Shown here piece by piece: positions 5,026 to 29,407 of a stretch of DNA of 39,468 nt. Origin of the DNA: Candidatus Margulisiibacteriota bacterium (GTDB lineage: Bacteria; Margulisbacteria; WOR-1; O2-12-FULL-45-9); NCBI GenBank assembly GCA_034723395.1, contig JAYEOW010000028.1:1-39468 (forward strand). Reading direction: 5' to 3'. The position numbers and the translations under genes were made by a program. Numbering within the stretch: the first letter of the stretch is position 1; the number at the start of each line of letters is the position of its first letter. The notes beneath the pieces are model-generated. The model made no database searches. It saw only the letters and a program-made list of their open reading frames with translations, and was not told the DNA's origin.

Positions 5026-5452
5026 CAGGAAACTGGCAACTGGCAACAGGCGACACATTTTAAGAATTATAGATGCTAATACCAATCGAGCTGTAGAAGG
5101 TCTAAGGGTAATAGAGGAAGTGGCCAGGTTTATTCTTAATAAAAAGTTGTTAACGAAGCAGCTTAAGAACATGCGCAGCTGTTTGCGGCAGGCGGCCAAA
5201 GAGATTGATCCTATCCTCGGACGAAAAGTCCTGAAAGATGTCGGCAGGAAGAGCTATACAAAAAGTGAAAAGAAAAGAAGCTCGGTAAAAGATGTTTTTA
5301 CCGCGAACGCAAAAAGAGTTCAGGAAGCTTTAAGGGTGTTGGAAGAATTTGCCAAGCTGTCCGATCCAAAGTTAGGGAAGATATATAAAGATGAGAGATT
5401 TAAGCTGTACGCAATAGAAAAAAAAGTTACGCGTGCTTTGCCAGTATCCTAG
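5015..5452 (+). CDS. Stand-alone ThiD2-like domain (N-terminal domain of cyanobacterial-type ThiE)
   Basis: RIIDANTNRAVEGLRVIEEVARF and ANAKRVQEALRVLEEFAKL...RFKLY motifs. Confidence 0.75.
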   Translation: MTSNRKLATGNRRHILRIIDANTNRAVEGLRVIEEVARFILNKKLLTKQLKNMRSCLRQAAKEIDPILGRKVLKDVGRKSYTKSEKKRSSVKDVFTANAKRVQEALRVLEEFAKLSDPKLGKIYKDERFKLYAIEKKVTRALPVS

Positions 5453-7613
5453 CCGCGAGTTCGGGGTTCCCCGCTTCTTCGATCAGCCGTACAAAATTCC
5501 TTAACTGCTCTTTTTTGACCGCCGGGGGGATGCTTTGCAAGGTCAGGAAAAGCTGTTTGTGGTCGGTGTCTGCCTTCAGGGTCGATTTAATATCCCTGAT
5601 CTTATTCTCCGGATTATCGGGTTGGGCCTGGTTGGCGGTGAGAAAGCTGTAGGCGTATCGGGTGTAGAAGGTGACCAGGGGCAAAGCGTAATTTGGATCG
5701 TTCCGGCGCGCCGCCTCGTTGATTGGGCTGGGGATCATGTTCCAGATGATATTATTTTGTCCTCTCAGGATATCAATGGCCCTTTGGGCGGAAAAAAGGT
5801 TGCTGCGGGTGACTTCTGTCACCAGAAATTCGGTAAACTTATCAGCATTGCGGAAAGATCTTTCGCCAGACAGCTTGTCTCCCTTCGCTTCAATATAACG
5901 TGTAAGATTATCAAAGAAGGGGATCCGAATGTATTCTATCTCGTCCCTGCCGTCGATTTTTTCTAGATCATGGAATAAAACCATGGTTTCTGTTGTAGGG
6001 TATTTTCCATCCCTTAATAATCCCATTAATTCCTGAATTTTAGCGGCAATAAACACAAGTGCTTTTGCGTCCTTGCTGGTTAGCGTTCCCGTATCCCTTT
6101 GGTATTTATTTGATTTTGCGAAGGAAAGGATGGTTTCTCTGATTTCTTCGGGGATGCTTTTATCTGCAAAAACAGGGATTTTCCCCAGGTCGGCTTCGAG
6201 AACGCTCCTTACCGCTTGCAGGGCCAGGGATTTACCTAGTTTCCCCTTGGCAACGGTAAAACTTTCCGCTTGGTTGTATATGCCTGGGGGAAGATTTGCC
6301 GGTTCAGACAGCCTGTCATACACATATGTCAGTAGAACGTCGATACCCTGACGGCTTTGGACGGCTTCATGGATAATAGGATTTAATACCCGCGAGGACA
6401 AATCTCTCATTTTTATTCCAAAAAAGGCCAGGATAGGTTTGTACCACGAATATTGCCGGTCATATTCCTGTAATAACTGCGGAAGAGCTTCGGGAAGCTG
6501 GTTTAAGATACCTGAAATAACTTTTACTTTCGCCTGGTCGGCTTCCTGCTGTGCCCCCTTGATAAAGGAATTGTGGTAGGCATTCTTCAGTTCGTTGACC
6601 AGCGTGGGGATCAATCCCGGATCGGCCCGCAGAAGGCTCGCTGCCAGGCGGATAGAATTGTCGACCACGTCATTTTTTTCATTTTTAGAGCGCAGATCTA
6701 CTGCGGTCTCCAGCAGCGCGGGCATGCTCTCGCGCGGCGTTTCTTTAAGTACCTCTTTGACGACATCCCGGCCTTTAGTTCTCGTGACTACGGCCGAGGT
6801 CATAATTTCGCTCCGGGTATTTATAGCATTTTGGGTTATTCTGATCACATATCCCTTATCGATCATTGCTTTAAGCGCTGCCCGTTCTTCGTCGCCTTTT
6901 TCCTCCCTGAGCTTATCTCTTGCCCTTTTTGTCTGCCGGTTCTTGTCCGCTTCGATCTCCACCGCCTCGATCCGCTGTTTTTCGAAGGCCACACGCATAG
7001 TAATATTTAAAAAATTGACAGTTGCCGTGAATCGCTGTTCTTGTTTTTGTTGTTTGTTGTCAGTATCCAGGTTTTTCCTTAGCCTGGCCATCATTAGGTT
7101 CATTGTGTACATGAAGTAGCGGAGGTTGTTCCCGGTTGTCAGGAAGTTGATGGTCCTTTGGTTGGTAATGTTCCCTTTGATAAATCTTTCAGCGGCTTCA
7201 TAAGTGGACCGATGGAAGCTAAATTGCGGGTCGCAGAGTTCGCCGTAAAGATAGAAAAGATTAACCTGATAAAGCTCCAGCCCTTTGTTCATCATTCTGT
7301 AAGGGTCGGAAACTAACCTGGTCAACCCATCAAGAAAACGAGGACGAAAGTCAATTTGCGGAACTCCTGCGCAATTTAATATCGAACTATAACGATGCGA
7401 AAATCCGGTCCACAACGTCGAATGGTTTCTTCCAAGCGGGGGGCGAAACCGGATGGCCTTTCTGGTGGCAGGGCGATAACTGCGGGGAGAAAAGGAGTAA
7501 GCCCTTCTGGCAAGGACGGAACGGCCGTTTTTCCTACTGGAGGTCCTGCGTTTCCACCAGTTTTTTATTCTGGTGCGCCATGAAATATTTGTATTTTTTA
7601 TCGCTTTTGCCAT
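5427..7613 (-). CDS. Large hypothetical, probably helical protein (728 aa)
   Basis: Long uninterrupted ORF; very basic N-terminus; charged coiled-coil-like stretch; no family recognised. Confidence 0.75.
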   Translation of the reverse strand: MAKAIKNTNISWRTRIKNWWKRRTSSRKNGRSVLARRAYSFSPRSYRPATRKAIRFRPPLGRNHSTLWTGFSHRYSSILNCAGVPQIDFRPRFLDGLTRLVSDPYRMMNKGLELYQVNLFYLYGELCDPQFSFHRSTYEAAERFIKGNITNQRTINFLTTGNNLRYFMYTMNLMMARLRKNLDTDNKQQKQEQRFTATVNFLNITMRVAFEKQRIEAVEIEADKNRQTKRARDKLREEKGDEERAALKAMIDKGYVIRITQNAINTRSEIMTSAVVTRTKGRDVVKEVLKETPRESMPALLETAVDLRSKNEKNDVVDNSIRLAASLLRADPGLIPTLVNELKNAYHNSFIKGAQQEADQAKVKVISGILNQLPEALPQLLQEYDRQYSWYKPILAFFGIKMRDLSSRVLNPIIHEAVQSRQGIDVLLTYVYDRLSEPANLPPGIYNQAESFTVAKGKLGKSLALQAVRSVLEADLGKIPVFADKSIPEEIRETILSFAKSNKYQRDTGTLTSKDAKALVFIAAKIQELMGLLRDGKYPTTETMVLFHDLEKIDGRDEIEYIRIPFFDNLTRYIEAKGDKLSGERSFRNADKFTEFLVTEVTRSNLFSAQRAIDILRGQNNIIWNMIPSPINEAARRNDPNYALPLVTFYTRYAYSFLTANQAQPDNPENKIRDIKSTLKADTDHKQLFLTLQSIPPAVKKEQLRNFVRLIEEAGNPELAARILAKHA

Positions 7614-12216: not shown

Positions 12217-13665
12217 CTATTGCCGTGTAAACCAGGTCTCCTCGCCGTTACGCTGACCATCAGCCGATTCGGAAACCGGAACAATATAATATGTTTCCGG
12301 AGTTACGGTGCTGATCGTGGCGGTAAGGGTAGAGGCCGCTGGCACATCGGTTACCGGGACTGCATAGGAATTGGTTGGTACGCCATAGGGAGCACTCCCT
12401 TCGCAGGTGCCGACCGTTACCGAATAGGTTAGGCCGCTCAATAGATTTCCATCCTCATCCAGCGGTTTACTAAAGACAATCTGCAGTGAATTTGAGTTGT
12501 AAGTTACCGGATCGCTGTTTACCCCTTGGGTAGAAGGCATAGTTATAGTGTTGTAAGTATTGATCTTTGACCAATCCGTCATTACATAAGCAGTACTTAT
12601 AAAAAAGTCCTGATAATTGCCTGCCCCGTAGTGGACGCGTACGGTGAATATGTCGCCAACGTTCATGATCGCTTTGGGAATCAGGAGAACAGTCCATTCG
12701 TTATTTGTAAGAGTAGTCGTCTTGTAGAGATTGTAATTTACGCTGCTCCAAAGTGTACCTTCGGATGGATAGCTTTCTGGTGATCCGATTGAATCTGAAT
12801 TCCAGATGATGGCTGCGTTAGCGATCGAGGCGGGGACGCCGACTACTTCGACGCTAACGATCTCATTTAATTTGCCACTTTTTGGGACAACATGGATGCG
12901 CATTAGAATAATATCTTCGGCGGGAGAAGTGGTCCCATGGTCGGCCCAAATGTTGCTGGAAATGTAAACCGTTTCAATCGTATTGCTAACAACGGTTGCT
13001 GAAGTTGGATTGGATGCGATCCCGTTGCGGATCCCGTCGTTATCTTCGTCAGCGTCAAACACGTTTGGAATACCATCCTGGTCGATGTCTGCCCCTGTGC
13101 GGTTGGTGATCCCGCTTTGTTCGGTTTTTCCATCGTTGCCTGCGCCCTGAGGAACTCCGTTGGTCGCGACCGCGGTTGCGTCCGCATTAGCAGAGTTCGG
13201 CACAGTTGATGGTTGTGCCATCGATTTTGAGCTGTCTAATACAATTGACCCAAGGTCGGTGTCGGAAGAAAGGTCGATCCCGGTGACGACCTCGGAACTT
13301 GAAGTGTCGCCGACCATAACGATCGGGCCGAAATATTGGGAATCACTGTCGATCAGGCTGACTTCATAGGAAACTCCGGAAGGGACGCTGACCGAAAAAT
13401 CTCCGGAGCTATCGGTGTTGCCATAGTATGTTTGTCCGGTTGCATTATCAACCGCGACAACATTGTAATTCGAAACGGCAGCAAAACTTTTTATTCCGGC
13501 GCTGCTGATGGTGCCGGTCGCGATTGAGCCGGAAAGGGCTATGCTCGGTGCGCTTGGAAGGGTTGTGGTAGTCGCGTCACCGGTCTGTTGTCCGCAGCCC
13601 AAACTGTAGAGCATTATCATCGAAGCCATCGACAGGATCATTCCAAAAATCACTACTTTTTTCAT
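12217..13665 (-). CDS. Ser/Thr-rich surface lipoprotein with DxDxDG calcium-binding-like motifs
   Basis: Start at ATG 13665 after AGGGG; hydrophobic leader ending in the lipobox SLG-C; DIDQDGIPNVFDADEDNDG. Confidence 0.75.
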   Translation of the reverse strand: MKKVVIFGMILSMASMIMLYSLGCGQQTGDATTTTLPSAPSIALSGSIATGTISSAGIKSFAAVSNYNVVAVDNATGQTYYGNTDSSGDFSVSVPSGVSYEVSLIDSDSQYFGPIVMVGDTSSSEVVTGIDLSSDTDLGSIVLDSSKSMAQPSTVPNSANADATAVATNGVPQGAGNDGKTEQSGITNRTGADIDQDGIPNVFDADEDNDGIRNGIASNPTSATVVSNTIETVYISSNIWADHGTTSPAEDIILMRIHVVPKSGKLNEIVSVEVVGVPASIANAAIIWNSDSIGSPESYPSEGTLWSSVNYNLYKTTTLTNNEWTVLLIPKAIMNVGDIFTVRVHYGAGNYQDFFISTAYVMTDWSKINTYNTITMPSTQGVNSDPVTYNSNSLQIVFSKPLDEDGNLLSGLTYSVTVGTCEGSAPYGVPTNSYAVPVTDVPAASTLTATISTVTPETYYIVPVSESADGQRNGEETWFTRQ

Positions 13666-13726
13666 TTTATTTCCCCTTTCATAATCATTCAATAAATTCT
13701 ATGATTATGTTAGAATGGTGATAATT

Positions 13727-15004
13727 ATGACACAGAGATTAGAGGCGTTAAAGGGGAATATTACCGAAGCGATGAGGCAGGTCGCGGGGGACGAGGGACG
13801 GGCGCCGGAAGAGATCCGCGCGGGGATCGCTCAGGGAGTGATCTCGATCCCATTTAATCCGCTGCACAAAAATTGCAGGGCGACAGGCGTAGGCAAAGGC
13901 TTAGGCACCAAGGTGAACGCCAATATCGGGACCTCCGTGGATTTTCCCAATCTTGAAGACGAATTAAAAAAACTCGAGTCCGCCTTAGATGCTAAGACCG
14001 ATTTTGTGATGGACCTTTCAACCGGCGGCGATATTACCGCGATCCGTAAAGCGGTCCTCAAAGCGTGTCCGGTCCCGCTCGGGACCGTTCCGGTCTATCA
14101 GGCGATCGTCGAGGATAAGATGACCCCTGAAGGGATGTTTGATGTGGTCGAACAGCAGGCGCAGGAAGGGGTAGATTTTATGACCATCCACTGCGGGGTA
14201 ACCCTTGAAACGATCGGTCGATTAAAAAAACATCCGCGTTTAATGGAAGTCGTTTCCCGCGGCGGCGCTCTGATGATGAAGTGGATCCTGGATAATAAAG
14301 AGGAGAATCCGTTTTACAAATATTATGATCGATTATTAGAAATTTCCCGCAAGTATGATATTACGCTTTCATTAGGTGATGGGATGCGGCCGGGGGCGAT
14401 TGTCGATGCCGGTGACCAGGCACAAATTCAAGAATTAGTTGTTTTGGGGGACCTGACCGAAAGGGCCTGGAAAGCGGGGGTTCAGGTTATTATAGAAGGG
14501 CCGGGGCATGTCCCGTATGACCAGATCGTATCCCAGATCAAGATGCAGAAAGAGATCTGCAAAGGAGCGCCGTTCTACGTTCTCGGACCGCTGCCGACTG
14601 ACGCTGCCCCAGGATACGATCATATTACCGCAGCCATTGGCGGCACATTGGCTGCGTCTGCCGGCGCCGACTTCTTATGTTATGTAACTCCGACCGAACA
14701 TTTAGGGCTGCCAAACCCGGAGGATGTCCGCGAAGGGGTGATCGCTTCGCGGATCGCCGCTCACTGCGCGGATATAGCAAAAGGTATTCCCGGGGCCAAA
14801 GATTGGGATATTGAAATGTCCAAAGCCCGTAAAGAGTTGAATTGGGCCAAACAGATCGAGCTGGCGATCGACCCCAAGAAAGCTAAAGAAATTTATTCCA
14901 GAAGAGAACCTTTATCCTCCGAAGCTCGTAAGAGCGAAGGAGGATGTTCGATGTGCGGTGAATTCTGCGCGATGAAAGTCTCGACCGAAGCGCTGAAAAA
15001 GTAA
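13727..15004 (+). CDS. thiC: Phosphomethylpyrimidine synthase (short ThiC/Bza-family form)
   Basis: KVNANIGTS, MDLSTGG, SRGG, LSLGDGMRPG, EGPGHVP, PGYDHIT, C-terminal CSMCGEFC. Confidence 0.9.
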   Translation: MTQRLEALKGNITEAMRQVAGDEGRAPEEIRAGIAQGVISIPFNPLHKNCRATGVGKGLGTKVNANIGTSVDFPNLEDELKKLESALDAKTDFVMDLSTGGDITAIRKAVLKACPVPLGTVPVYQAIVEDKMTPEGMFDVVEQQAQEGVDFMTIHCGVTLETIGRLKKHPRLMEVVSRGGALMMKWILDNKEENPFYKYYDRLLEISRKYDITLSLGDGMRPGAIVDAGDQAQIQELVVLGDLTERAWKAGVQVIIEGPGHVPYDQIVSQIKMQKEICKGAPFYVLGPLPTDAAPGYDHITAAIGGTLAASAGADFLCYVTPTEHLGLPNPEDVREGVIASRIAAHCADIAKGIPGAKDWDIEMSKARKELNWAKQIELAIDPKKAKEIYSRREPLSSEARKSEGGCSMCGEFCAMKVSTEALKK

Positions 15005-15133: not shown

Positions 15134-16279
15134 ATGGATTTTTCACTTGACGAGAACCAGCAAATGTATGTGGGTTTGGCTAAGGATTTTGTTAAAAAGG
15201 AGATACAACCCAAAATATTGGAGCTGGATAATAAGCACGACTTCCCGCGCGATATCATGAAGAAAGCATGGGAAGTGGGGTTTATGAACCTGTGTGTTTC
15301 GGAAGAATATGGTGGATTAGGGGCCGATCCGATTGCAATTGCATTGATTGTCGAGGAAATTGCTTATGGATGTTCTGGTATTGCAACGTCGGTTATGTGC
15401 AATGATTTGGCAAATGCGGTAATTGCAATCCATGGCAGCCATGAACAAAAGGAAAAGTTTTTAAAACCCTTTACAGAAAAACCACTTCTTTCAAGCTTTT
15501 GTTTGACTGAGGCGGAGGCGGGATCTGACAATTTGGCCATGACAACTTTTATCAAAAAAAGGGAAGATGGCAAGTATGTATTAAATGGGACCAAGCAATT
15601 TATTACCAATGCTACATATGCTGACCAATATTCGGTTTTTTGTAAGCTTAGTAGTGTAAAATCACAATTAATGTCTTGTGTTATTGTTCCCAAAAATCCA
15701 GAAGAAGGAAAAGTTATCCCTGGAAAACCCGAAGCCAAATTAGGGCAACATCTTTCAAATACAGCAGAAGTTACTTTCGAGGATGTTGTTGTTGATCCTT
15801 CTCAAATTATTGGGAACCGACGCTTAGGTTTCAAATATTTAATTGACGTTCTTGATTATTCAAGGCCTATGATCGCGGCCATTGGAGCTGGGATTGCGCG
15901 CAAGGCTTATGATCTTACTTTAGAATATACAAAAAATAGAGTCCAATTTGGTACGCGCATTTGTGATATGCCTGTTGCGCGTGAAACCTTAGTTAAGATG
16001 TACAATAAAATGAGAGTTGCTCAAGTTATGACCCAATACTCTGCTTGGAAACTCAAAGAAAATCATGAAGATAAAGGAATCTATGCTTCACTAGCAAAAA
16101 ATATGGCTGCTGAAGCCTGTATTTTCAATGCTAATGAAGGCCTACATTTACATGGAGGTTACGGATTCACTTCAGAATATGAGATTTCAAAATTGGCCCG
16201 TGACGCGCATATTATTGATATTTATGAAGGTACGCGCGAGGTACAAACCATGATTCAAGGGCGGGAGTTAGTTTCTTAG
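15134..16279 (+). CDS. Acyl-CoA (possibly acyl-ACP) dehydrogenase
   Basis: FCLTEAEAGSD, NGTKQFITN, RVQFG, HGGYGF, IYEGT with the catalytic Glu. Confidence 0.92.
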   Translation: MDFSLDENQQMYVGLAKDFVKKEIQPKILELDNKHDFPRDIMKKAWEVGFMNLCVSEEYGGLGADPIAIALIVEEIAYGCSGIATSVMCNDLANAVIAIHGSHEQKEKFLKPFTEKPLLSSFCLTEAEAGSDNLAMTTFIKKREDGKYVLNGTKQFITNATYADQYSVFCKLSSVKSQLMSCVIVPKNPEEGKVIPGKPEAKLGQHLSNTAEVTFEDVVVDPSQIIGNRRLGFKYLIDVLDYSRPMIAAIGAGIARKAYDLTLEYTKNRVQFGTRICDMPVARETLVKMYNKMRVAQVMTQYSAWKLKENHEDKGIYASLAKNMAAEACIFNANEGLHLHGGYGFTSEYEISKLARDAHIIDIYEGTREVQTMIQGRELVS

Positions 16280-16281
16280 CT

Positions 16282-16938
16282 GTGGAAATATTTATAAATG
16301 ATGAAGAATTATCAAATGTTAGTTTTGGTAATAGCACTTATCAGAAAAAAATAATCGATCAAAAAGCGGACGCCAATTGGGTTTGCAGGTTGCCGCACGG
16401 ACCGATGAAGATGCTGGACCGGGCGTGGTATGATTTTGAAAAAGGCAAAGGCAAGTATGGCAAAGGCTATCTGCGCGCTGAAAAAGACATAACCCCTGAC
16501 GACTGGTATTTTTATGCCCATTTTCTGGGTGATCCTGTAATGCCCGGGACAATTGGGATCGATGGTTGTTATCAATGCTTGGGGACAACTCTTTTGATCA
16601 TGGGCTGCAAAGGAGTTGCGCGTGCCCTCGCAGGGAAATTTGAATATACAGGGCAGGTTTTAACCAGTGTCAAGAAAACTGTATATCGTATGGATATTAA
16701 ACGCTTTTTTTCAAAACCTTCTCCATTATTAATTGCGGATGTAGACTATTTTAAAGATGATGATAAAGAGCCTATTTATAAATTAAGAGATGCCAGGATG
16801 GGTTTTTTTAAAGAGGGGGAGCTGGAGAGATCGCCTGCTTACCGACCGGACTGGAACAAAGTAAAAGAAAAAGCTTTGGCAGAAATTGATGCGAGTAGAG
16901 AGTACTATCTTAAGAATTTTGGGAAAGAAGGCTATTAG
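16282..16938 (+). CDS. fabA: FabA-type 3-hydroxyacyl-ACP dehydratase/isomerase with terminal extensions
   Basis: RLPHGPMKMLDR and HFLGDPVMPGTIGIDG (His/Asp dyad as in FabA), GQVL. Confidence 0.8.
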   Translation: MEIFINDEELSNVSFGNSTYQKKIIDQKADANWVCRLPHGPMKMLDRAWYDFEKGKGKYGKGYLRAEKDITPDDWYFYAHFLGDPVMPGTIGIDGCYQCLGTTLLIMGCKGVARALAGKFEYTGQVLTSVKKTVYRMDIKRFFSKPSPLLIADVDYFKDDDKEPIYKLRDARMGFFKEGELERSPAYRPDWNKVKEKALAEIDASREYYLKNFGKEGY

Positions 16939-16940
16939 CA

Positions 16941-17849
16941 TTGTATATAAATTGTCTTAAGAGCTATTTCCCAGATGAGATTTTAGATAACCGTTTTTTT
17001 GAAGAACGTCTTGATACGACAGATGACTGGATTGTTTCAAGGGTGGGGATAAAAGAACGCCGCAGATGTAATAATGATCAGCCCACACTTTTTTTGGGTG
17101 TTAATGCGGTAAGCCAGATTCCCAAGGAGCACTTAGAAGGAGTTGATTGCCTGGTAGTTGGGGTGTCGATTACCCAGTGGCAGATCCCGGCTACCGCCAA
17201 TCTTATTGCAGAAAAGCTTGGATTAGATGGTATTCCATGTTTTGATGTGCGTGCGGCTTGTAGTTCTTTTGTTTATGGGCTTAGGGTTATTAAGGGGTTG
17301 TTAGCTACCGGGTTTAAGAAGATTTTATTTGTTGTGCCTGAAGCCTACACAAGTGTGGTTGATTATAATGACCGTTCGTCATCAGTATTATGGGGAGATG
17401 GCGCCATAGCTTGTGTTATTTCTGGACAGGCACAAGGGCTGGAAGTTCTTGACCTGCTTATAAACTCAAAATCTTCCGGAGCCTACAAGGTGGCTGCCCG
17501 GGTAGGAGGTTATTTTTTTCAGGAGGGGACTAAGGTCCAAAGTTTTGCAGTGCGCTATAGTATAAAGGTTTCGCAGGAGATGCTCTCTAGAAATAATGTG
17601 TCCAGTATCGATTATCTGGTACTGCATCAGGCCAATTTGGTGATGATGAAGTCTGTCGCAAAAAATTTGGGGATAGAGGAGAATCGTCTTTTACATAATA
17701 TCGAACGCTATGGGAATACAGGGGCGGTGGGAGCCGCCTCGGTGCTTGCTGAAAATTGGGAAAAGGTAAAGGCCGGCGAGAAAGTGCTTATAACGGTGGT
17801 CGGGTCAGGACTTTCATGGGGATCAGTGTTGCTTAGGAAAAAAGGATAG
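16941..17849 (+). CDS. fabH: Ketoacyl-ACP synthase III family protein
   Basis: DTTDDWIVSRVGIKERR, AACSSF, HQAN, YGNT (Cys-His-Asn triad), GSGLSWG. Confidence 0.85.
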   Translation: MYINCLKSYFPDEILDNRFFEERLDTTDDWIVSRVGIKERRRCNNDQPTLFLGVNAVSQIPKEHLEGVDCLVVGVSITQWQIPATANLIAEKLGLDGIPCFDVRAACSSFVYGLRVIKGLLATGFKKILFVVPEAYTSVVDYNDRSSSVLWGDGAIACVISGQAQGLEVLDLLINSKSSGAYKVAARVGGYFFQEGTKVQSFAVRYSIKVSQEMLSRNNVSSIDYLVLHQANLVMMKSVAKNLGIEENRLLHNIERYGNTGAVGAASVLAENWEKVKAGEKVLITVVGSGLSWGSVLLRKKG

Positions 17850-17872
17850 ATAAAACATCATGTTTTTGACTC

Positions 17873-17902
17873 TTGATTTAATGTGTAAGGAAAGTATATA
17901 AT
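17873..17902 (+). promoter_or_regulatory. Internal promoter upstream of fabZ
   Basis: TTGATT, 18-nt spacer, TATAAT, 7 nt before ATG 17910. Confidence 0.55.
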
Positions 17903-17909
17903 ACATGAA

Positions 17910-18389
17910 ATGTTGTTAAAACCAACTGATATATTGCCGCAGCAGCAGCCCTTTTTGTTTTTGGACGAATATGTCGAGTTGGACGCAAAGCACTGTCTTG
18001 CAAAATATACGTTTAAGAAAGATGAGTGGTTCTTTTCCGGCCATTTTCCCAATAACCCGGTAGTTCCCGGGGTTGTGTTGATCGAGGCTATGGCCCAGGC
18101 GGGCGTGGTAAGTATCGGGATATTTAATCTTGCCCAAAAGTATAATATTCCTTTTGCTGAAGTAAAAAATCAGCGTTTGGCATTGTTTACCAAGGTAAGG
18201 GAGGTTGAGTTTTTGGAAACGGTCAAACCTGGAGAAACTGTGTTTATTTCATGTCACCAGATATTTTACCGTTTTAATAGGTCGGAAACAGTTGGAGAAG
18301 TATATAAAATGGTGAATGGGGAAAGGAGGATCGTTTGCACTCATAAAAGTATATTCGGCCAAGGAGTAAAAATTGTTAAGGGAGGGTAA
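17910..18389 (+). CDS. fabZ: FabZ-type 3-hydroxyacyl-ACP dehydratase
   Basis: LPQQQPFLFLD and GHFPNNPVVPGVVLIEAMAQ (His/Glu dyad). Confidence 0.85.
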   Translation: MLLKPTDILPQQQPFLFLDEYVELDAKHCLAKYTFKKDEWFFSGHFPNNPVVPGVVLIEAMAQAGVVSIGIFNLAQKYNIPFAEVKNQRLALFTKVREVEFLETVKPGETVFISCHQIFYRFNRSETVGEVYKMVNGERRIVCTHKSIFGQGVKIVKGG

Positions 18390-18391
18390 AA

Positions 18392-18649
18392 ATGGAAAGA
18401 AGTGAAGTCATTAAAGGTTTAAAAGAAATTTTGGCTCCTTATTTGGGAGTAGAGAAAGATAAGTTAGAGGCAGCGGTCGAGACAACTGATATTAATAACG
18501 AACTGGGAGTAAAATCAACCGATACAGTAAACATTGTTTTGGATTTGGAAAACAAATGGGACATAGCTTTCGAAGATGAAGAGATTGATGGGTTAAACGA
18601 AGTAACTATCAAATCTGTTACTGATCTTGTTATGTCAAAAAAATCTTAA
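18392..18649 (+). CDS. Acyl carrier protein with a non-canonical LGVKST attachment motif
   Basis: 85-aa acidic protein; ELGVKSTDTVNIVLDLENKWDIAFEDEE aligns with DLGxDSLDxVELVMxLEExFxIxIxDEE. Confidence 0.85.
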   Translation: MERSEVIKGLKEILAPYLGVEKDKLEAAVETTDINNELGVKSTDTVNIVLDLENKWDIAFEDEEIDGLNEVTIKSVTDLVMSKKS

Positions 18650-18661
18650 GGAGTAACTTGT

Positions 18662-19945
18662 ATGGCTGATGTTGCAATTGTCGGGATGGGGGTTGTTAAT
18701 TCGCTGGGCAATGATCTGAACACCTTTTCTGAAAGTCTTCAGCAGGGGAAAATTGGCTATAAAACGATTCCGCTTCACGAGCAGTTAAATTTCAGGTCAA
18801 AAATTGCCAGTTATCCGGATGAGTCTAAAATCGATTACCAATCTTACGGAATAAAAATGCAGGATCTCTTAAGCTGCGATGATGTTGCCAGGTTTACTCT
18901 GGCGGCGGCTTCCCAAGCGGTTAGACAGGCCGGCATAAGTGAGGAAATGCTCAGGAGCCCTGATTGTGGGGTTTTGATTGGTTCCGGCTTGGGCGGGGGG
19001 AATGAATTTGCCGATCTTACTTTTTTATTGACCAATAGGCAACCGGTCTTTACAAAAGAGAAGAAGTGGAAGGTAGTTAATCCCAGGCCGAGAAATGTGG
19101 GGAGCCATAAAGTAGATTCCACCATGGCTTCTACTTGTTCGGCAAATACCTCGGTGTTCTTTAAAACCCAGGGGATGGGGGAGTCTTTAAGTTCTGCCTG
19201 CAGCACAGGTCTGGGAAACATTGGATATGCCTATCGCATGATCAAACACGGCTATCAAAAACGGGTGATATGCGGGGGGTCCGAGACCTCTTGTTGGAAT
19301 GTTGCCGCGGGCTTTGATGCTATGATGGTATTGTCTCCTACCGGTTCGCTTTCCCTGTCGGGAGAGAGGAGTGGTTTTGTAGCTGGAGCGGGGGCCGGCA
19401 TAGTTGTTTTGGAAGAACTTCAAAGCGTCCTGGATAGAGGGGCCAAACCCCTTGCTGTAATCAAGGGATTTTACAGCGGTTGCTGCGGCAGTGGGAATAT
19501 GACGGCTCCTTCCAGGGAGGGCCAGATTCGTTGTGTCGAAGGCGCCCTGGCGGATGGGCACCCAAATTGGGAAAGCAAGTTTGGGAAGGGCTGGAAACCG
19601 GATATCGTAAAATTACACGGCACCGCTACTCCTACCGGCGACGCAATTGAAGTCAAGTCGGTAGTTGAGTGTTTTGGTAAGGAAGGTTATCATTTAACCG
19701 CTCCCAAGGCTTTATTCGGCCATTTATTAGGAGCAGCCGGGTCAGTGGAATTAATATGCGCGGTGGATATGCTGCAGAAGGGTTATGTGGTTCCAAATAT
19801 TAATTGCGACCCTCTCGACCCTGAGTTGGAGTTTGTAACCCACCTCATCCCCAGGAAAATTGTTAAAGGGGATTTTAAGACCGCACTTTGCATATCTTTT
19901 GGTTTTGGCAGCACGAATGCCGGGATGATAATTGAAAAGGTATGA
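18662..19945 (+). CDS. Ketoacyl-ACP synthase I/II (FabB/FabF family)
   Basis: SSACSTG, HGTATPTGD, KALFGHLLGAAG (Cys-His-His triad), SFGFGSTN. Confidence 0.9.
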   Translation: MADVAIVGMGVVNSLGNDLNTFSESLQQGKIGYKTIPLHEQLNFRSKIASYPDESKIDYQSYGIKMQDLLSCDDVARFTLAAASQAVRQAGISEEMLRSPDCGVLIGSGLGGGNEFADLTFLLTNRQPVFTKEKKWKVVNPRPRNVGSHKVDSTMASTCSANTSVFFKTQGMGESLSSACSTGLGNIGYAYRMIKHGYQKRVICGGSETSCWNVAAGFDAMMVLSPTGSLSLSGERSGFVAGAGAGIVVLEELQSVLDRGAKPLAVIKGFYSGCCGSGNMTAPSREGQIRCVEGALADGHPNWESKFGKGWKPDIVKLHGTATPTGDAIEVKSVVECFGKEGYHLTAPKALFGHLLGAAGSVELICAVDMLQKGYVVPNINCDPLDPELEFVTHLIPRKIVKGDFKTALCISFGFGSTNAGMIIEKV

Positions 19946-20706
19946 GCCGTTACCTTCGGGCCCTTTTACGGCTGCAGTCTTTTCTTTCCTGGATTTTTTG
20001 TGTTCTCGTTTTTGCTCCTGTTATTTTGGTAATTTCCCGTTTTTATTCTATCAAGGTTTACGGAAAAGGTAATTTAGGTAATCTTAAAGGGCCTTTGATC
20101 ATCGTAAGCAATCACCTCACCTTGATCGACTCATTATTTATTGGATTTGTAGTGGCTTTTCCGCAATCATATTGGAAGCCGCGGCGGCTAACCTGGCATT
20201 TGCCCGAAGCTACAAATTATTCCAGAGGGATGCTTGCCCCGTTGGTTTGGCTCGGCAGATCCATCCCTATTTTGAGGAACGTGCCGCCCGGGGAGCAAAA
20301 ATCGGCAAAGGATAAAGTTATCTGTGTTCTTAAAAATAAGGAATTAATTCATATCTTTCCTGAAGGGACCCGGAGCCGGACCGGTAGAGTTGAGAGCTTC
20401 ACCAACGGCATTGGCAGGATATACATGCGAGTGCCGGATTGCCGAGTCCTTCCTGTGTATATCAGGGGGAGTGAAAATGTTTTGCCTGTTAATTGCAAGT
20501 TCCCTAAGCTTTTTAAAAAGATCGATATCGTTATTGGGAAACCCCAAAAACTGGCGTCTGAACAAAAAGGGCTAAGGGCTGCAGTTGATATTTCTGAACA
20601 AATTTATGCTATTTTAAAAGGTATGGAAAATGAGTATTTTGAGGGCAAAATGTACAGGGCCTCGGAAATAATTGGGGAGAACACAGGTTGTGAAGATATT
20701 AATTAA
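19942..20706 (+). CDS. PlsC-family lysophospholipid acyltransferase
   Basis: NHLTLID (HxxxxD), FPEGTRS, N-terminal hydrophobic helix. Confidence 0.88.
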   Translation: MSRYLRALLRLQSFLSWIFCVLVFAPVILVISRFYSIKVYGKGNLGNLKGPLIIVSNHLTLIDSLFIGFVVAFPQSYWKPRRLTWHLPEATNYSRGMLAPLVWLGRSIPILRNVPPGEQKSAKDKVICVLKNKELIHIFPEGTRSRTGRVESFTNGIGRIYMRVPDCRVLPVYIRGSENVLPVNCKFPKLFKKIDIVIGKPQKLASEQKGLRAAVDISEQIYAILKGMENEYFEGKMYRASEIIGENTGCEDIN

Positions 20707-21409
20707 TGCCATAAAATTTTTGCAGGTCTTTTGTGTGATTGTTTACGCTTATATTGCGCGGCCGTACCATCTCTTTGTTTATTATTTTGACCGGAGAGCG
20801 TATTATCGGGCTATCCATTCCAGTTCTAAGTTTATTCTTTTTTGCCTGGGCATCAGGGTTTCACTTTTTGACCCAAAAAACATACCCAAACCCGGCGGCG
20901 CGTATTTGATTGCTGCCAACCATCAGAGCTATATGGATAGTAATATTTTATCGAGTTTGATCCCCTGTGTTTTTATCCAGCGCCCGGTCTCATATCTCCC
21001 GGGTATTTCCTGGCATTTTGGCAAGATGTCATTAATCATTAAGCGTGACAGTCCTGCCAGTATTATCAAGGCTGTTCGATATGTAAAAAAAGTGGCTATT
21101 GATCAACAGACTCCAGTTGTCATGTTCCCCGAATCTACACGTAGTGTCGATGGGTCTCTTGGAAATTTACGGTTGGGGGTTGCAACGATTGCAAAAAATT
21201 TAAAGATACCAATTTTACCTATCACTATCTTCAATTCCAGAGAAGTTTTAGCTAAAGGCAAGGCTATTCATGATGCTGGCGCTGTTTACGTCGCAGCTCA
21301 AAAACCAATTGATGGGAATTATGTGCAAAACCATTCCGTTGAAGAAATAACCGGGGAAATTAGGGCGAGGCTGCAGGCCGGCCTGGATTCTATTGGCCAG
21401 AGAATTTAA
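20672..21409 (+). CDS. Second PlsC-family acyltransferase (start uncertain)
   Basis: NHQSYMD, FPESTRS, PILPITI. Confidence 0.85.
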   Translation: MGRTQVVKILINAIKFLQVFCVIVYAYIARPYHLFVYYFDRRAYYRAIHSSSKFILFCLGIRVSLFDPKNIPKPGGAYLIAANHQSYMDSNILSSLIPCVFIQRPVSYLPGISWHFGKMSLIIKRDSPASIIKAVRYVKKVAIDQQTPVVMFPESTRSVDGSLGNLRLGVATIAKNLKIPILPITIFNSREVLAKGKAIHDAGAVYVAAQKPIDGNYVQNHSVEEITGEIRARLQAGLDSIGQRI

Positions 21410-21411
21410 TT

Positions 21412-21768
21412 ATGACTTTTGCGGTTGGGAATGATATAGTATTTATTCCGGACTTTGAAAAAAGCCTTTCCGAGCCTTTTAAAAAGCGGGTGTTTTCCGA
21501 GCTCGAAATTGATCAGATAGAAAAATACAAAGCCTGTCCGCTTATAAGGTATGCCAGCACCTGGGCAGCCAAAGAATCCGTGGTTAAGGCGCTCAGGCAG
21601 GTCTTTGACGGGGGATTGGGCCTGGCCTGGAAGGATATCCAGGTTATTAGGGAAAACAAAATACCCGGGGTACGGATATTAATGCCCCGCTATTCACAGT
21701 TATCTTTCTCTTTATCCCTCAGCCATGATCGTGACTATGCTTTCGCGGTGGTTGTTTTAAAAAAATGA
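21412..21768 (+). CDS. acpS: Holo-ACP synthase (AcpS-type phosphopantetheinyl transferase)
   Basis: VGNDIV, WAAKESVVKA, SLSHD; 118 aa. Confidence 0.88.
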   Translation: MTFAVGNDIVFIPDFEKSLSEPFKKRVFSELEIDQIEKYKACPLIRYASTWAAKESVVKALRQVFDGGLGLAWKDIQVIRENKIPGVRILMPRYSQLSFSLSLSHDRDYAFAVVVLKK

Positions 21769-21833
21769 GAGCCCCGGCTGAAGCTCTCAAACAATAGCTG
21801 AAATTACTCCTCTTTATTTCTGATAAATACTTG

Positions 21834-22436
21834 ATGACTTTTAATATTTGTCCGCCAGCAAATTCATATGTCCGTAGGAAAATACTCCCTTTCTATGCTC
21901 AAAAAAGGGCGCGAATAAGGAGGCCTCTTATAGAACGCGCGCGCGAGGCCAGGGATAAACTGGCCATTAATTATTCCCAGGCGGTCGATTATTGGTGGCG
22001 CGAAGAGTTCCAGCTGGGGGGGGGGAATATATTTTCAATTAAGAACGAAGCGAAAAACGCCGATGGAAAACAGATCTCTCTGGTCATTTCGCATTTCGGA
22101 TCGATCTTTCAGGATTCTGATGTCCAGATCAGGTGCAGGGAATCGGGAGCCAGAGATTATACGGCTGTTATTGACGCTACCCCTTTTGGCGGTGACAAGA
22201 TTTTTCATATCCGGTTTGTGGTGGTACGCAATAATTTGATCGATCTGGCATCAATCCGTTCGGAAGCTAAGGGCTATGGAGGAAAAGGATTGACCGCGCT
22301 TTATAATTTTGCCAAGGATATCGGATGCCGCGAGATCATCTACACTCCCAAGGATGATAGCGCCCGGCGGTTCTATTTACATATGGATTTTATTAGTGCG
22401 GCATCACAAGACCTTTTTAGGCTTCGGATTTCATAG
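21834..22436 (+). CDS. Hypothetical protein with a C-terminal GNAT-like fold
   Basis: KGYGGKGL...ARRFYLHMDF resembles GNAT motifs A and B; start at ATG 21834 or TTG 21831. Confidence 0.5.
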   Translation: MTFNICPPANSYVRRKILPFYAQKRARIRRPLIERAREARDKLAINYSQAVDYWWREEFQLGGGNIFSIKNEAKNADGKQISLVISHFGSIFQDSDVQIRCRESGARDYTAVIDATPFGGDKIFHIRFVVVRNNLIDLASIRSEAKGYGGKGLTALYNFAKDIGCREIIYTPKDDSARRFYLHMDFISAASQDLFRLRIS

Positions 22437-24551: not shown

Positions 24552-25091
24552 ATGAGAGAAAAAGAGACCAAGCGGGAAAAGATATATAAAGGGACCCTGC
24601 TGGGTTTAAGGAGAGATACGGTTAAGCTGCCGAATGGAAAAAGTTCGACCAGGGAGATCGTGGAGCATCCGGGGGCAGTTGCTGTAGTGGCGATAACTAA
24701 AGATAAGGAGCTAGTTTTAGTCCGCCAATTCAGGAAGCCGACCGAGCAGGTATTGCTCGAGATCCCTGCCGGTGTTCCAAAGAAAGATGAAAAGCCGGAT
24801 GTCTGCGCAAGAAGGGAACTTGAGGAAGAAACCGGTTTCCGTGCCAAAAAGGTTAAAAAAGTTTGGGAAGGCTACGCGTCTCCCGGATATTCGGACGAGC
24901 TGATCCAGTTTTGCGTTGCTGAGGACATGACTAAGCTTAAGCAGAATATGGATGAAGATGAGTTTATCGAAGTAGATATTGTAGATATAGATGCCTGTTT
25001 TGATATGTTAAAAGCGGGGAAGATCCGTGATAACAAGACGATGGTCGGGATCACCCTGGCGGAAATGTATATAAATGGAGAAATATCTTAA
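24552..25091 (+). CDS. nudF: NUDIX hydrolase, ADP-ribose pyrophosphatase type
   Basis: REIVEHPGAVAV, LEIPAG...ARRELEEETG, SPGYSDE; start taken at ATG 24552. Confidence 0.85.
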   Translation: MREKETKREKIYKGTLLGLRRDTVKLPNGKSSTREIVEHPGAVAVVAITKDKELVLVRQFRKPTEQVLLEIPAGVPKKDEKPDVCARRELEEETGFRAKKVKKVWEGYASPGYSDELIQFCVAEDMTKLKQNMDEDEFIEVDIVDIDACFDMLKAGKIRDNKTMVGITLAEMYINGEIS

Positions 25092-25950
25092 AGACTTTCT
25101 GGATTTTATAAAGATCGAACGCGGTTATTCGGAGAATACCGTCAAATCTTACCAAAAAGATCTTAATGATTTTACAAAATATTCTAAGATAAGAGAGTCG
25201 CGATATGTGAGACGTGATATTATAAAAACCTATCTTGAATATTTATACGATAACGGATTCTCAGTCTCATCTGCCGAAAGAAAGCTCGCCTGCCTAAAAT
25301 CATTTTTTAAATATTTTTTACGCGAAGGAAAGATCGATAAAGATCCGACCGGGGATATTAAACTTCCCAAGAAGGCGAAGCGTTTGCCAAAGGCTTTAGG
25401 GATTGGCGAAACTATCCGCTTGATCTCTTCACCGCGCGAAAAAGATCATATCTCGATGCGCGATGCGGCGCTGCTCGAAATGTTATACGCCACCGGAATG
25501 CGCGCTTCTGAAATAGTCGGATTGGATATCGCCGATATTAACCTTTCGGTATCATTCGTTCGCTGTTTAGGGAAAGGTTCTAAGGAGCGGATCGTTCCGA
25601 TCAATAAAGTTACGCTAAAGGCGATCAAGGTCTATCTTGAAAAAGGGAGGTTGGAGTTCCCGCAAAAAGATGATAAGGCGCTATTTTTAGATAAGAATGG
25701 AAAACGTTTGGGACGCCAGGGACTATGGTACATAATTAAAAAATATGTTAAGAAGTCGGGGGTAAAAGGAAAAACTTCTCCGCATACTCTTCGCCATTCG
25801 TTCGCTACCCATCTTTTAGAAAAAGGAGCTGACCTGCGTTCGGTCCAGGAGATGCTGGGGCACGCGGATATCTCGACCACGCAGATCTACACTTCGGTGT
25901 CGCGCGAGAGGCTAAAAAGAGTGTATAATAAAGCGCACCCTAGGGCTTAA
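25075..25950 (+). CDS. xerD: Site-specific tyrosine recombinase XerD
   Basis: YATGMRASE, GKGSKER, SPHTLRHSFATHLL, LGHADISTTQIYT, HPRA C-terminus. Confidence 0.9.
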   Translation: MEKYLKDFLDFIKIERGYSENTVKSYQKDLNDFTKYSKIRESRYVRRDIIKTYLEYLYDNGFSVSSAERKLACLKSFFKYFLREGKIDKDPTGDIKLPKKAKRLPKALGIGETIRLISSPREKDHISMRDAALLEMLYATGMRASEIVGLDIADINLSVSFVRCLGKGSKERIVPINKVTLKAIKVYLEKGRLEFPQKDDKALFLDKNGKRLGRQGLWYIIKKYVKKSGVKGKTSPHTLRHSFATHLLEKGADLRSVQEMLGHADISTTQIYTSVSRERLKRVYNKAHPRA

Positions 25951-27802: not shown

Positions 27803-29407
27803 ATGCCCGCACCCAGACAAATTCTATCTTTAATCGACCGCTTTGATCAGCATACCGCCGCCGCGGGTGGCGCTAAAATAGAACTTAACGACCGTTTTAA
27901 GCAGGCGCTTGAGCTTCTTGAGAATACCGGGCGAAACGTTTTTATAACCGGCCGGGCGGGCACCGGCAAATCGACCCTTCTGGAATATTTCCGCCTGATC
28001 ACTAAAAAGAGGATTGTAGTGCTTGCTCCGACAGGGGTCGCGGCCTTGAACGTCAAAGGCGAGACCATTCACTCCTTCTTTCGTTTCAAGCCCGACATCA
28101 CTCTTAATAAAATAAAGAAGATCAAATTCAAAAAGGGGAAGAAAAATATCTACAAGGGCGTTGACGCGGTCGTAATCGACGAAATATCCATGGCGCGGTC
28201 GGACCTGCTTGACTGTGTAGACAAATTTCTCCGCTTGAACGGACCGAATCGAAATAAACCCTTTGGCGGGGTGCAAATGATCTTTATCGGCGACCTTTAC
28301 CAGCTGCCTCCGGTGGTGACCGGGCAGGAAAAGGGGATATTCAAAGGGCATTACGATAGCGAGTATTTTTTTGACGCCAGGAGCTTTTCCGAACTTGACA
28401 TGGAATATATCGAGCTGGAAAAGGTCTACCGCCAGAAGGACGAAAAATTCATTGCCCTGTTGAACGCGGTCAGGAATAATTCGGCCGGGGACAAAGAGAT
28501 CGCGCTTTTGAATAAGCGGCTTGACCCGGATTATGAGCCGAAGGATGAATATCGCATTTGCCTGACCCCGACCAACCGCATGGCAAAAGAGATAAATGAG
28601 CGGAGGTTGGCGCGGCTTAAGGGGAAAGCGGTCGTTTTTCAGGGGGAGATAAGGGGAGATTTCGAGCTTAAGCGGCTGCCGACCGAACGGGAACTGGCAC
28701 TGAAGAAAGGCGCGCAGGTAATGATGCTCAACAATGATTCGATGCGGCAATGGGTCAACGGCACTCTGGGCGTGGTTAGTGAGATCGGGGACGGGGTGGT
28801 GGAGGTCGAGCTTGAAGACGGCGGCTCGGCGATAGTTGAGCCTTATAAATGGGAAATTTTTCATTTTACTCTTGACGGCAAGGGCGGTCTCGCGACCGAG
28901 CCGGTCGGTTCTTTTACTCAATTGCCGATGAAGCTTGCCTGGGCGGTGACCATTCACAAGAGCCAGGGAAAGACCTTTGACCGGGTAATTATCGATCTGG
29001 GGCGCGGGACGTTCGCTCACGGCCAGCTTTATGTGGCCCTGAGCCGCTGCCGGTCGCTTGCCGGCATAGTTTTGAAAAAACCGGTCAAGAATGGACATAT
29101 ACTCATGGACTGGCGGGTGGTGAGGTTTGTGACCGGTTATCAATATCAATTATCGGAGAAGAGGTTTTCTTTTGAAGATAAGATCGCTTTGATAGAAGGA
29201 GCGATCAAAAACAGGCGCGGGCTGGAAATAACTTACCTGAAGGCGCAGGATGTGAAGAGTAAAAGAACGATCGAGCCGCTGGAAGTCGGCGAAATGGAAT
29301 ACAAAGGCAAGCCCTTCATCGGGTTAAGGGCCTTTTGCCGCCACCGCAGGGAAGAAAGATGCTTTCGGGTGGACCGTATGCTGGAAATAAAAGAGGTTGA
29401 CCTTTAG
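27803..29407 (+). CDS. PIF1-family SF1B helicase with C-terminal WYL domain
   Basis: GRAGTGKS, APTGVAA, IDEISM, GDLYQLPPV, AVTIHKSQG, YVALSR; C-terminal RTIEP...LRAFC..R.EERCFRVDRM WYL pattern. Confidence 0.9.
   Translation: MPAPRQILSLIDRFDQHTAAAGGAKIELNDRFKQALELLENTGRNVFITGRAGTGKSTLLEYFRLITKKRIVVLAPTGVAALNVKGETIHSFFRFKPDITLNKIKKIKFKKGKKNIYKGVDAVVIDEISMARSDLLDCVDKFLRLNGPNRNKPFGGVQMIFIGDLYQLPPVVTGQEKGIFKGHYDSEYFFDARSFSELDMEYIELEKVYRQKDEKFIALLNAVRNNSAGDKEIALLNKRLDPDYEPKDEYRICLTPTNRMAKEINERRLARLKGKAVVFQGEIRGDFELKRLPTERELALKKGAQVMMLNNDSMRQWVNGTLGVVSEIGDGVVEVELEDGGSAIVEPYKWEIFHFTLDGKGGLATEPVGSFTQLPMKLAWAVTIHKSQGKTFDRVIIDLGRGTFAHGQLYVALSRCRSLAGIVLKKPVKNGHILMDWRVVRFVTGYQYQLSEKRFSFEDKIALIEGAIKNRRGLEITYLKAQDVKSKRTIEPLEVGEMEYKGKPFIGLRAFCRHRREERCFRVDRMLEIKEVDL

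Follow-up and report, generated by a model that had tools for sequence, protein, structure and literature searches.

Canonical phosphopantetheinyl transferases (PPTases) of the AcpS type recognize their acyl carrier protein (ACP) through an electrostatic interface, in which Arg14/15, Arg21/22, and other residues of AcpS face Asp35, Asp38, and Glu41 of the ACP. In Bacillus subtilis, Arg14 of AcpS is reported to pair with ACP Asp35 and Asp38 (PMC3447402; PMC3107222; both citing Parris et al. 2000), and the E. coli interface is described as Arg15, Arg22, Arg26, and Arg30 of AcpS set against Asp35, Asp38, Glu41, and Glu47/48 of ACP (bioRxiv 10.1101/2025.01.28.635281). According to the same preprint, E. 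coli ACP carrying D35N or E41A singly stays in the apo form in vivo, unmodified by E. coli AcpS. According to another report, AcpS prefers ACPs whose surface is strongly negative (PMC12551638). A second arrangement is the actinobacterial fas1-acpS system (Rv2524c/Rv2523c in Mycobacterium tuberculosis; PPT1/AcpS in Corynebacterium ammoniagenes; structures 3NE9/3NFD, 3HQJ, and 4HC6), in which a group I PPTase adjoins the fatty acid synthase (FAS) that it serves. M. tuberculosis acpS is reported to be cotranscribed with fas1, FAS I produced in E. coli in the absence of acpS carries no phosphopantetheine, and E. coli's own AcpS fails to activate this FAS I (PMC6152951); the D-S-L-type carrier AcpM is described as having PptT, and not AcpS, as its activating enzyme (PMC5302061, citing Zimhony 2015). 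Here, we describe an AcpS/ACP pair encoded in a 39,468-nucleotide stretch of DNA from a Candidatus Margulisiibacteriota bacterium (assembly GCA_034723395.1, contig JAYEOW010000028.1, positions 1 to 39,468, the whole of which we call the window), and we propose that the two proteins are probably dedicated to each other within an accessory, type II FAS-like cluster and meet through a largely nonelectrostatic interface.

The ACP is an 85-amino-acid (aa) open reading frame (ORF; positions 18392 to 18649, + strand) that contains ELGVKSTDTVNIVLDLE, so that Lys41 occupies position -1, Thr43 position +1, and Asn47 position +5 relative to Ser42. The AcpS is a 118-aa ORF (positions 21412 to 21768, + strand) that starts with MTFAVGNDIVFIPDFEKS, carries Asp14, and includes the motif STWAAKES. 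A preliminary description of the locus had read the two sites as G-V-K-S-T-D-T-V-N and D-I-V-F-I-P-D-F, and the translations agree with both (contexts N-E-L-G-V-K-S-T-D-T-V-N-I-V-L-D-L-E and G-N-D-I-V-F-I-P-D-F). It had further proposed that ACP and AcpS coevolved a specificity of their own through a reciprocal swap of charge between Lys(-1) and Asp14. The broader reading, a dedicated pair that the housekeeping AcpS probably does not serve, is well backed by gene context and conservation, and the ACP lacks residues that a canonical AcpS needs, having Lys and Asn at the equivalents of Asp35 and Glu41; the swap as its mechanism is not supported, as set out below. Judged by these substitutions, loading of the cluster ACP by a canonical AcpS is unlikely, a statement that concerns this direction only. 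The charges of the two proteins point the same way: the net charge of the helix II segment from -1 to +13 is -1 in the cluster ACP versus -5 in the AcpP of the same genome (the cluster ACP is at -10 overall), and that of AcpS is +4 in the cluster versus +11 for the housekeeping enzyme. These weaker charges fit the preference of AcpS for strongly negative ACPs described in PMC12551638.

The host genome (1.68 Mb, 97% complete) also carries a canonical pair. It has exactly two matches to PF01648, one in the cluster and one on contig C51; the latter reads GIDIIEIGRI, with the canonical Arg14, and the two AcpS proteins share 28% identity. Three ACPs match PF00550, which together with the cluster ACP makes four. 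The canonical AcpP (contig C29) reads LGADSLDTVELV, with the site L-G-A-D-S-L-D-T-V-E-L-V, and is surrounded by a complete housekeeping operon in the order plsX-fabH-ACAD-etfB-etfA(ferredoxin)-fabD-fabG-acpP-fabK-like-fabF, where ACAD denotes an acyl-CoA dehydrogenase (CoA, coenzyme A); an additional FabZ-like match lies on contig C17 (tblastn, 30% identity). Since a canonical AcpS, AcpP, and full housekeeping type II FAS (FAS II) are present in the same genome, the window cluster is a second, accessory system.

By family profiles, the cluster ACP is highly divergent. It scored 19.9 bits against PF14573 (cutoff, 32), was not reported for PF00550 at an E value of ≤0.01 in the Pfam search, and fell under every NCBIfam ACP cutoff (best score, 37.2 versus 71), and its site is K-S-T instead of the D-S-L of type II ACPs. 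Its Protein Atlas model indicates a type II ACP fold, with four helices and the Ser opening helix II; this model superposes on PP-binding clusters with a template modeling (TM) score of 0.89, which adds nothing beyond the ACP fold. The best PDB sequence matches are type II ACPs (E = 3e-5, among the best 60 of 87 matches). K-S-T is kept in all 29 ACP homologs at 70 to 100% identity, the window's own included (28 GVKST and 1 WVKST), which argues that the deviations of the ACP are conserved and not due to chance. In a wider alignment of 41 ACPs (A2), Ser42 is invariant (41/41) and Thr43, Asn47, and Ile48 are each present in at least 90% of the rows, and position 41 follows the clade, with Lys in the Margulisbacteria (Margulis) type and Pro in Sphingobacteriales, whose ACPs read x-T-P-S-T-E-[LM]-I-N-I. 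The pattern conserved over both clades is [K/P]-S-T-[D/E]-x-[V/I]-N, from which Asp(-1), Leu(+1), and Glu(+5) have been lost.

The in-cluster AcpS belongs to group I, scoring 62.6 against TIGR00556 (cutoff, 45.35) and 48 bits against PF01648 (cutoff, 25) over profile positions 1 to 111 of 111, and it lies below the canonical AcpS equivalog cutoffs (45.9 versus 59.8 for TIGR00516; 50 versus 124 for NF000831). The characteristic quaternary structure of group I enzymes is a homotrimer whose active sites lie between subunits. In an alignment of 39 AcpS sequences (A1), the invariant positions are G6, N7, D8, V10, F15, S18, K54, E55, K59, and H105. Asp8, Glu55, and Lys59, invariant in 39/39 rows as is H105, are the equivalents of Asp8, Glu58, and Lys62, the catalytic and Mg/CoA-binding residues of B. 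subtilis AcpS. The signature of the subfamily is G-N-D-x-V-x-[IL]-P-x-F ... R-Y-A-[ST]-T-W-A-A-K-E. In the AlphaFold2 model (mean predicted local distance difference test [pLDDT] score, 94.8), helix alpha1 is split into residues 12 to 18 and 21 to 27, with a break at 19-20. The pair resembles the canonical AcpS-AcpP complexes (B. subtilis 1F80, E. coli 5VCB) in fold, catalytic residues, AcpS size, and ACP fold but differs from them in having no Arg14, in the broken helix alpha1 of the model, and in the Lys/Pro, Thr, and Asn at ACP positions -1, +1, and +5.

Searches of known structures place this AcpS closest, in both sequence and predicted fold, to type I FAS PPTases. Foldseek with the AcpS model returned 90 PDB matches at E ≤ 0.001, those listed being AcpS or FAS PPTase chains throughout; ranks 1 to 8 were FAS I-associated AcpS or PPTase chains, the nearest folds being C. 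ammoniagenes AcpS (3NE9/3NFD; TM score, 0.84 to 0.86), the Chaetomium thermophilum FAS PPTase, and the yeast PPTase. By sequence, the best PDB match was the yeast FAS PPTase domain (2WAS/2WAT; E = 1.3e-6), followed by C. ammoniagenes PPT1 (3NE9) and then by the AcpS proteins of B. subtilis and M. tuberculosis. The likeness to mycobacterial AcpS that the preliminary description had noted holds, as IPDF aligns to IPDF in M. tuberculosis AcpS and to IPGF in C. ammoniagenes PPT1. The actinobacterial enzymes, which include the top Foldseek matches, share I-P-[DG]-F near the N terminus, at the place of x-x-R-I, as well as W-A-A-K-E (alignments to 4HC6 and 3NE9). They differ in that they prime an ACP domain within a type I megasynthase, whereas the ACP of the window stands free and belongs to a type II module, and the window AcpS is only about 28 to 29% identical to them. 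A nonstandard carrier that is served by a coencoded AcpS of the I-P-D-F type, apart from the standard system, thus has a precedent; the novelty lies in the setting, in which the ACP is a separate type II protein within a type II module. The fungal type I FAS PPTase (2WAS/2WAT, 2UV8), which was both the best sequence match and among the top folds, is likewise a PPTase dedicated to one carrier, as we propose for the window AcpS, but it is a domain fused to the alpha chain of a eukaryotic type I synthase and lacks I-P-D-F (L-I-T-S-I aligns there). The K-S-T site of the ACP may resemble that of fungal FAS ACP domains, as the preliminary description suggested; a text search of the literature for the fungal motif found no paper that contained it.

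The ACP and AcpS genes lie in a cluster of nine genes on the same strand (positions 15134 to 21768, +), flanked by thiC (13715 to 15004) on one side and on the other by a 201-aa ORF, beyond which comes a thiL-like gene. The nine genes are as follows.
15134..16279, + strand: acyl-CoA dehydrogenase family flavoenzyme, 381 aa, the first gene of the cluster (Pfam Acyl-CoA_dh_N/M/1)
16282..16938, + strand: FabA-like hotdog dehydratase, 218 aa (PF07977, 107 bits; NCBIfam FabA NF003509, 123.6 versus a cutoff of 124)
16941..17849, + strand: FabH-like ketoacyl-ACP synthase III, 302 aa (Pfam ACP_syn_III, ACP_syn_III_C)
17910..18389, + strand: FabZ-like dehydratase, 159 aa, part of the conserved gene core (PF07977)
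18392..18649, + strand: divergent type II ACP, 85 aa, with Ser42 in G-V-K-S-T-D-T-V-N
18662..19945, + strand: elongating FabB/FabF-like ketoacyl-ACP synthase (KS), 427 aa (Pfam ketoacyl-synt, ketoacyl-synt_C)
19942..20706, + strand: PlsC-family acyltransferase 1, 254 aa (PF01553)
20672..21409, + strand: PlsC-family acyltransferase 2, 245 aa (PF01553; NCBIfam AGP_acyltrn domain)
21412..21768, + strand: AcpS-type (group I) PPTase, 118 aa, with Asp14 (PF01648)
Read by eye, the translations show intact Cys (AACSS), His (HQAN), and Asn (GNTG) motifs in the FabH-like protein and an intact Cys (SACSTG) and two His (HGTATP, GHLLGA) in the KS. The FabH-like protein and the housekeeping FabH share 30% identity, and the KS is 34 to 44% identical to the KSs of related modules in Sphingobacteriales versus 31% to the genome's own FabF. 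Pfam annotation of the window genes found no FabD, FabG, or type I FAS in the cluster; the neighbors of the pair are discrete type II enzymes. Accessory clusters of this general kind are known. The AcpT system of E. coli O157 with ApeE/ApeF, studied by De Lay and Cronan, is reportedly an accessory FAS-like lipid cluster in which the ACPs have a PPTase encoded alongside them; unlike the group I AcpS of the window, AcpT belongs to the Sfp type (group II). In the rhizobial cluster acpXL-fabZXL-fabF2XL-fabF1XL-lpxXL, a special ACP with its own FabZ and KS works with an acyltransferase that delivers a special acyl chain to a lipid, and the rhizobial cluster is not known to have a PPTase of its own.

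Six close AcpS homologs share 59 to 64% identity with the window protein, and more than 100 others share 43 to 51%; the latter, where named, come from Pedobacter, Mucilaginibacter, Daejeonella, and Pelobium. A scan of species genomes found 224 AcpS relatives, of which the loci of the best 80 were analyzed: 1 belongs to a Margulisiibacteriota metagenome-assembled genome (MAG) and 79 to Bacteroidota, nearly all Sphingobacteriales. BLAST located a KS upstream of AcpS in 71 of the 79 Bacteroidota loci, and in 7 of the 8 without one less than 1.1 kb of contig remains upstream of AcpS. An ACP orthologous to that of the window (32 to 42% identity) was found in 66 of the 79. As annotated with Pfam in L043, the Sphingobacteriales module consists of a FabG-like ketoacyl reductase, a FabZ-like protein, ACP, KS, a FabI-like (enoyl reductase-like) short-chain dehydrogenase/reductase (SDR), and AcpS, with an alpha/beta hydrolase next in line in L043 and a PlsC-like acyltransferase in L065, where the SDRs of the module were also checked. 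A metagenome scan with the ACP yielded only 3 close loci (L007 to L009), all of them short, with the order FabZ-ACP-KS(-AcpS) and with AcpS present in L009 alone; orthologs of the FabZ-like gene lie directly 5' of ACP in both the Margulis-type and the Sphingobacteriales loci. Within the window's phylum, the ACP occurs in only 2 of 146 genomes, seven further matches at 31 to 34% being ordinary ACPs, and with this one further genome the clade with Lys(-1) has just three usable ACP/AcpS pairs. In a tree of 116 AcpS rows, 16 of them outgroup, the Margulis-type clade (9 rows; Shimodaira-Hasegawa-like approximate likelihood ratio test [SH-aLRT] support, 81) and the Bacteroidota-type clade (90 rows; SH-aLRT support, 98) are sisters, the former not being nested in the latter. 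This topology does not single out a donor for transfer of the module. An ACP of the ladderane/anammox type was dropped as a candidate, since the organism is a member of Margulisiibacteriota and the nearest modules are in Sphingobacteriales. Full-text searches of the open-access literature found no paper describing the module or the subfamily.

From the sequences, their conservation and synteny, and the second, canonical system, we infer which enzyme loads which carrier and what chemistry follows. The housekeeping, Arg-rich AcpS would be unable to load the cluster ACP, and the cluster would for this reason carry an AcpS-family transferase of its own. Recognition would run through a remodeled, largely polar and hydrophobic interface between helix alpha1 of AcpS and helix II of ACP, with no single swapped salt bridge; we propose the invariant Phe15 and Ser18 of AcpS and the nearly invariant Thr43, Asn47, and Ile48 of ACP as its residues, and the sole requirement at AcpS position 14 would be that it not be basic. 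The resulting holo-ACP would carry a specialized acyl chain made by the KS and dehydratases of the cluster, with FabD and FabG probably supplied by the housekeeping operon, and the in-cluster PlsC-type acyltransferases would hand this chain to a lipid acceptor. A bolder version, which we regard as doubtful, holds that the G-N-D-x-V-x-[IL]-P-x-F AcpS proteins and the [K/P]-S-T...N ACPs form a natural, fully orthogonal type II pair with nonelectrostatic recognition and an evolutionary link between free AcpS/ACP and the PPTase and ACP parts of type I FAS, and that a self-sufficient mini-FAS takes them from phylum to phylum and makes an undescribed lipid in Sphingobacteriaceae and some Margulisbacteria.

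Several observations weigh against a dedicated pair. The loss of Arg14 and the loss of Asp(-1) each fall on one branch of the tree, so their co-occurrence amounts to one evolutionary event and not to repeated covariation. With neither FabD nor FabG in the cluster, the ACP must work with housekeeping enzymes, and insulation is therefore incomplete. A search of four Sphingobacteriales genomes showed no short AcpS-type gene apart from that of the module, the other PF01648 matches lying in frames of 88, 158, 190 to 234, and 1424 aa; the module AcpS of these bacteria could therefore also serve AcpP and hence not be dedicated. The Foldseek advantage of the FAS I-type chains is modest (E = 6e-10 and a TM score of 0.86 versus E values of ~1e-7 and TM scores of 0.75 to 0.83 for ordinary AcpS). 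Finally, the ACP has no special sequence likeness to FAS I ACP domains: PDB sequence searches listed no FAS I chain for the whole ACP among the best 60 of 87 matches and none among the 42 matches for residues 31 to 63, both listings comprising only type II and mitochondrial ACPs.

In a rival reading, the ACP site would be tuned to the enzymes of the cluster (KS, dehydratases, and PlsC) or would keep housekeeping partners off, with an unselective AcpS traveling along to serve any host, including hosts with Sfp-type PPTases. A self-sufficient unit capable of transfer would fit the occurrence of the module in two distant phyla and in so few genomes of the window's phylum; the searched Sphingobacteriales genomes encode no other short AcpS; and ACP position -1 varies by clade (Lys versus Pro) under a constant AcpS N-terminal motif. 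An enzyme that served acidic ACPs unselectively would, however, not be expected to have lost Arg14 and to have become less basic in its N-terminal part, as this subfamily has, and the relatives of known function are described as selective (PMC5302061; PMC6152951). On balance, we consider an unselective AcpS unlikely.

The reciprocal charge swap, in which a coevolved Lys41-Asp14 salt bridge would replace Asp35-Arg14 and act as a specificity switch insulating the pathway, fares worse and is in our view very unlikely. Several points speak for it. Asp14 falls in the alignment column of Arg14; the contact between Arg14 and acidic ACP residues near the Ser, which the preliminary description had invoked, is the one reported for the B. 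subtilis complex (PMC3447402; PMC3107222); and Margulis-type members with a known ACP partner are never basic at position 14. The two residues do not covary, however, over ACP/AcpS pairs encoded at the same locus. We counted ACP -1/AcpS 14 combinations in 68 colocated pairs, leaving out L010 (which has an unrelated D-S-V ACP and no AcpS) and single-gene contigs, and found P/D in 44, P/N in 6, P/G in 4, P/E in 3, P/V, P/H, and P/T in 2 each, P/Q, P/S, and P/I in 1 each, and K/D in 2, the window and L009 being the only K/D pairs. In Sphingobacteriales, Asp14 thus occurs in 44 of 66 pairs although ACP position -1 is Pro, and in a related Margulisbacteria MAG (G113, = G150), with the two genes on two contigs, an ACP with Lys(-1) goes with an AcpS with Gly14. 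The seven Margulis-type AcpS proteins have D, D, D, G, G, G, and E at position 14, whereas all 29 ACPs keep Lys(-1). Over the 100 in-group rows of the tree, at least 32 changes are needed at this position, which is absent from the conserved columns of alignment A1. Read from the same alignment, helix alpha1 of the Margulis-type clade has no other conserved acidic residue. ACP position +2 stays acidic (Asp44; Glu in Sphingobacteriales), and in the canonical geometry this residue would face Asp14. The prevalence of P/D, the K/G pair, and the variability of position 14 together indicate that Asp14 did not evolve as a counterpart of Lys41, and the swap thereby fails the covariation test that the preliminary description had put forward for it. 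Complex modeling of three AcpS chains with CoA and one ACP, given as alignments, returned 0.70 for the pair, 0.69 for one control partner, and 0.53 when AcpS was replaced. As far as the alignments tell, the conserved signal is the loss of Arg14 and the avoidance of a basic residue at position 14, beside the loss of Asp(-1), Leu(+1), and Glu(+5) from the ACP. By comparison, in the column of residue 14 across the window AcpS and 150 library representatives, R accounts for 113 of 151 rows, followed by D (10), S and E (6 each), N (5), Q (3), H, T, and A (2 each), K (1), and a gap (1). One of the library representatives, P0151, is the only member of the subfamily with Arg14 (I-P-R-L) and sits on a long branch within the Margulis-type clade.

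Least probable of all is that the second AcpS is a redundant paralog kept for dosage or regulation, with either AcpS loading either ACP and the differences due to drift in a small, fast-evolving genome: AcpS is often broad, and E. coli AcpS is reported to modify many foreign ACPs, but the deviations are fixed in 29 ACP and more than 100 AcpS homologs from two phyla, the two AcpS proteins of the genome have diverged to the 28% identity given above, and D35N or E41A alone is reported to block a canonical AcpS (bioRxiv 10.1101/2025.01.28.635281).

Some features of the related loci and of the host genome were recorded alongside. In a related Margulisiibacteriota MAG, five tandem ORFs of ~245 to 266 aa lie directly upstream of AcpS (L012:71-3780, +), four of which match PlsC1 or PlsC2 of the window by BLAST; the window has two such genes, and in L009 AcpS directly follows KS with no acyltransferase in between. 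Several loci of the Mucilaginibacter type (L038, L040, L051, L058, L059, L060, L063, L072, and L084) have an ORF of ~2,000 to 2,200 aa with a KS domain 3' of the module, ~3.2 to 3.9 kb downstream of AcpS (e.g., L038:13612-20196) and 23 to 29% identical to the window KS, which may be a linked megasynthase. In the housekeeping fab operon (genome G000, contig C29, L108:1428-10670, -), the ACAD and EtfB/EtfA genes stand between fabH and fabD, and the EtfA carries an N-terminal 2x[4Fe-4S] ferredoxin domain; this insert is possibly a bifurcating unit of the butyryl-CoA dehydrogenase type that is coupled with fatty acid synthesis. The ACAD of the cluster is 35% identical to that of the operon, and the cluster has no Etf genes. 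The genome's extra ACP genes are on contigs C36 (8240 to 8506, -; site G-V-D-S-L-L), ~400 bp from a weak PlsC-like match, and C50 (3660 to 3920, +; site N-F-D-S-I-D). In the window, the 201-aa ORF between AcpS and the thiL-like gene (21831 to 22436, +) matches no Pfam or NCBIfam family and lacks a homolog in the related loci analyzed, and the ORFs at 5427 to 7613 (-, 728 aa) and 12217 to 13692 (-, 491 aa) gave no family match or a subthreshold one (CarboxypepD_reg, 22 bits). A few kilobases 3' of the cluster are genes for a XerC/D-like tyrosine recombinase (25075 to 25950, +) and a PIF1-family helicase with a C-terminal WYL domain (27803 to 29407, +).

Carrier proteins are hubs, and the matching of PPTase to carrier decides whether a pathway is portable to new hosts. 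A compact AcpS-type enzyme for a type II ACP that is not of the D-S-L type would usefully add a second channel to AcpS/AcpP and Sfp. Because cultivable Pedobacter and Mucilaginibacter widely carry the module, it points to an uncharacterized, genetically tractable lipid pathway. As read from its sequences, the family suggests that AcpS specificity can be retuned by remodeling the whole interface, which would correct the attractive but wrong design rule of a single charge swap.

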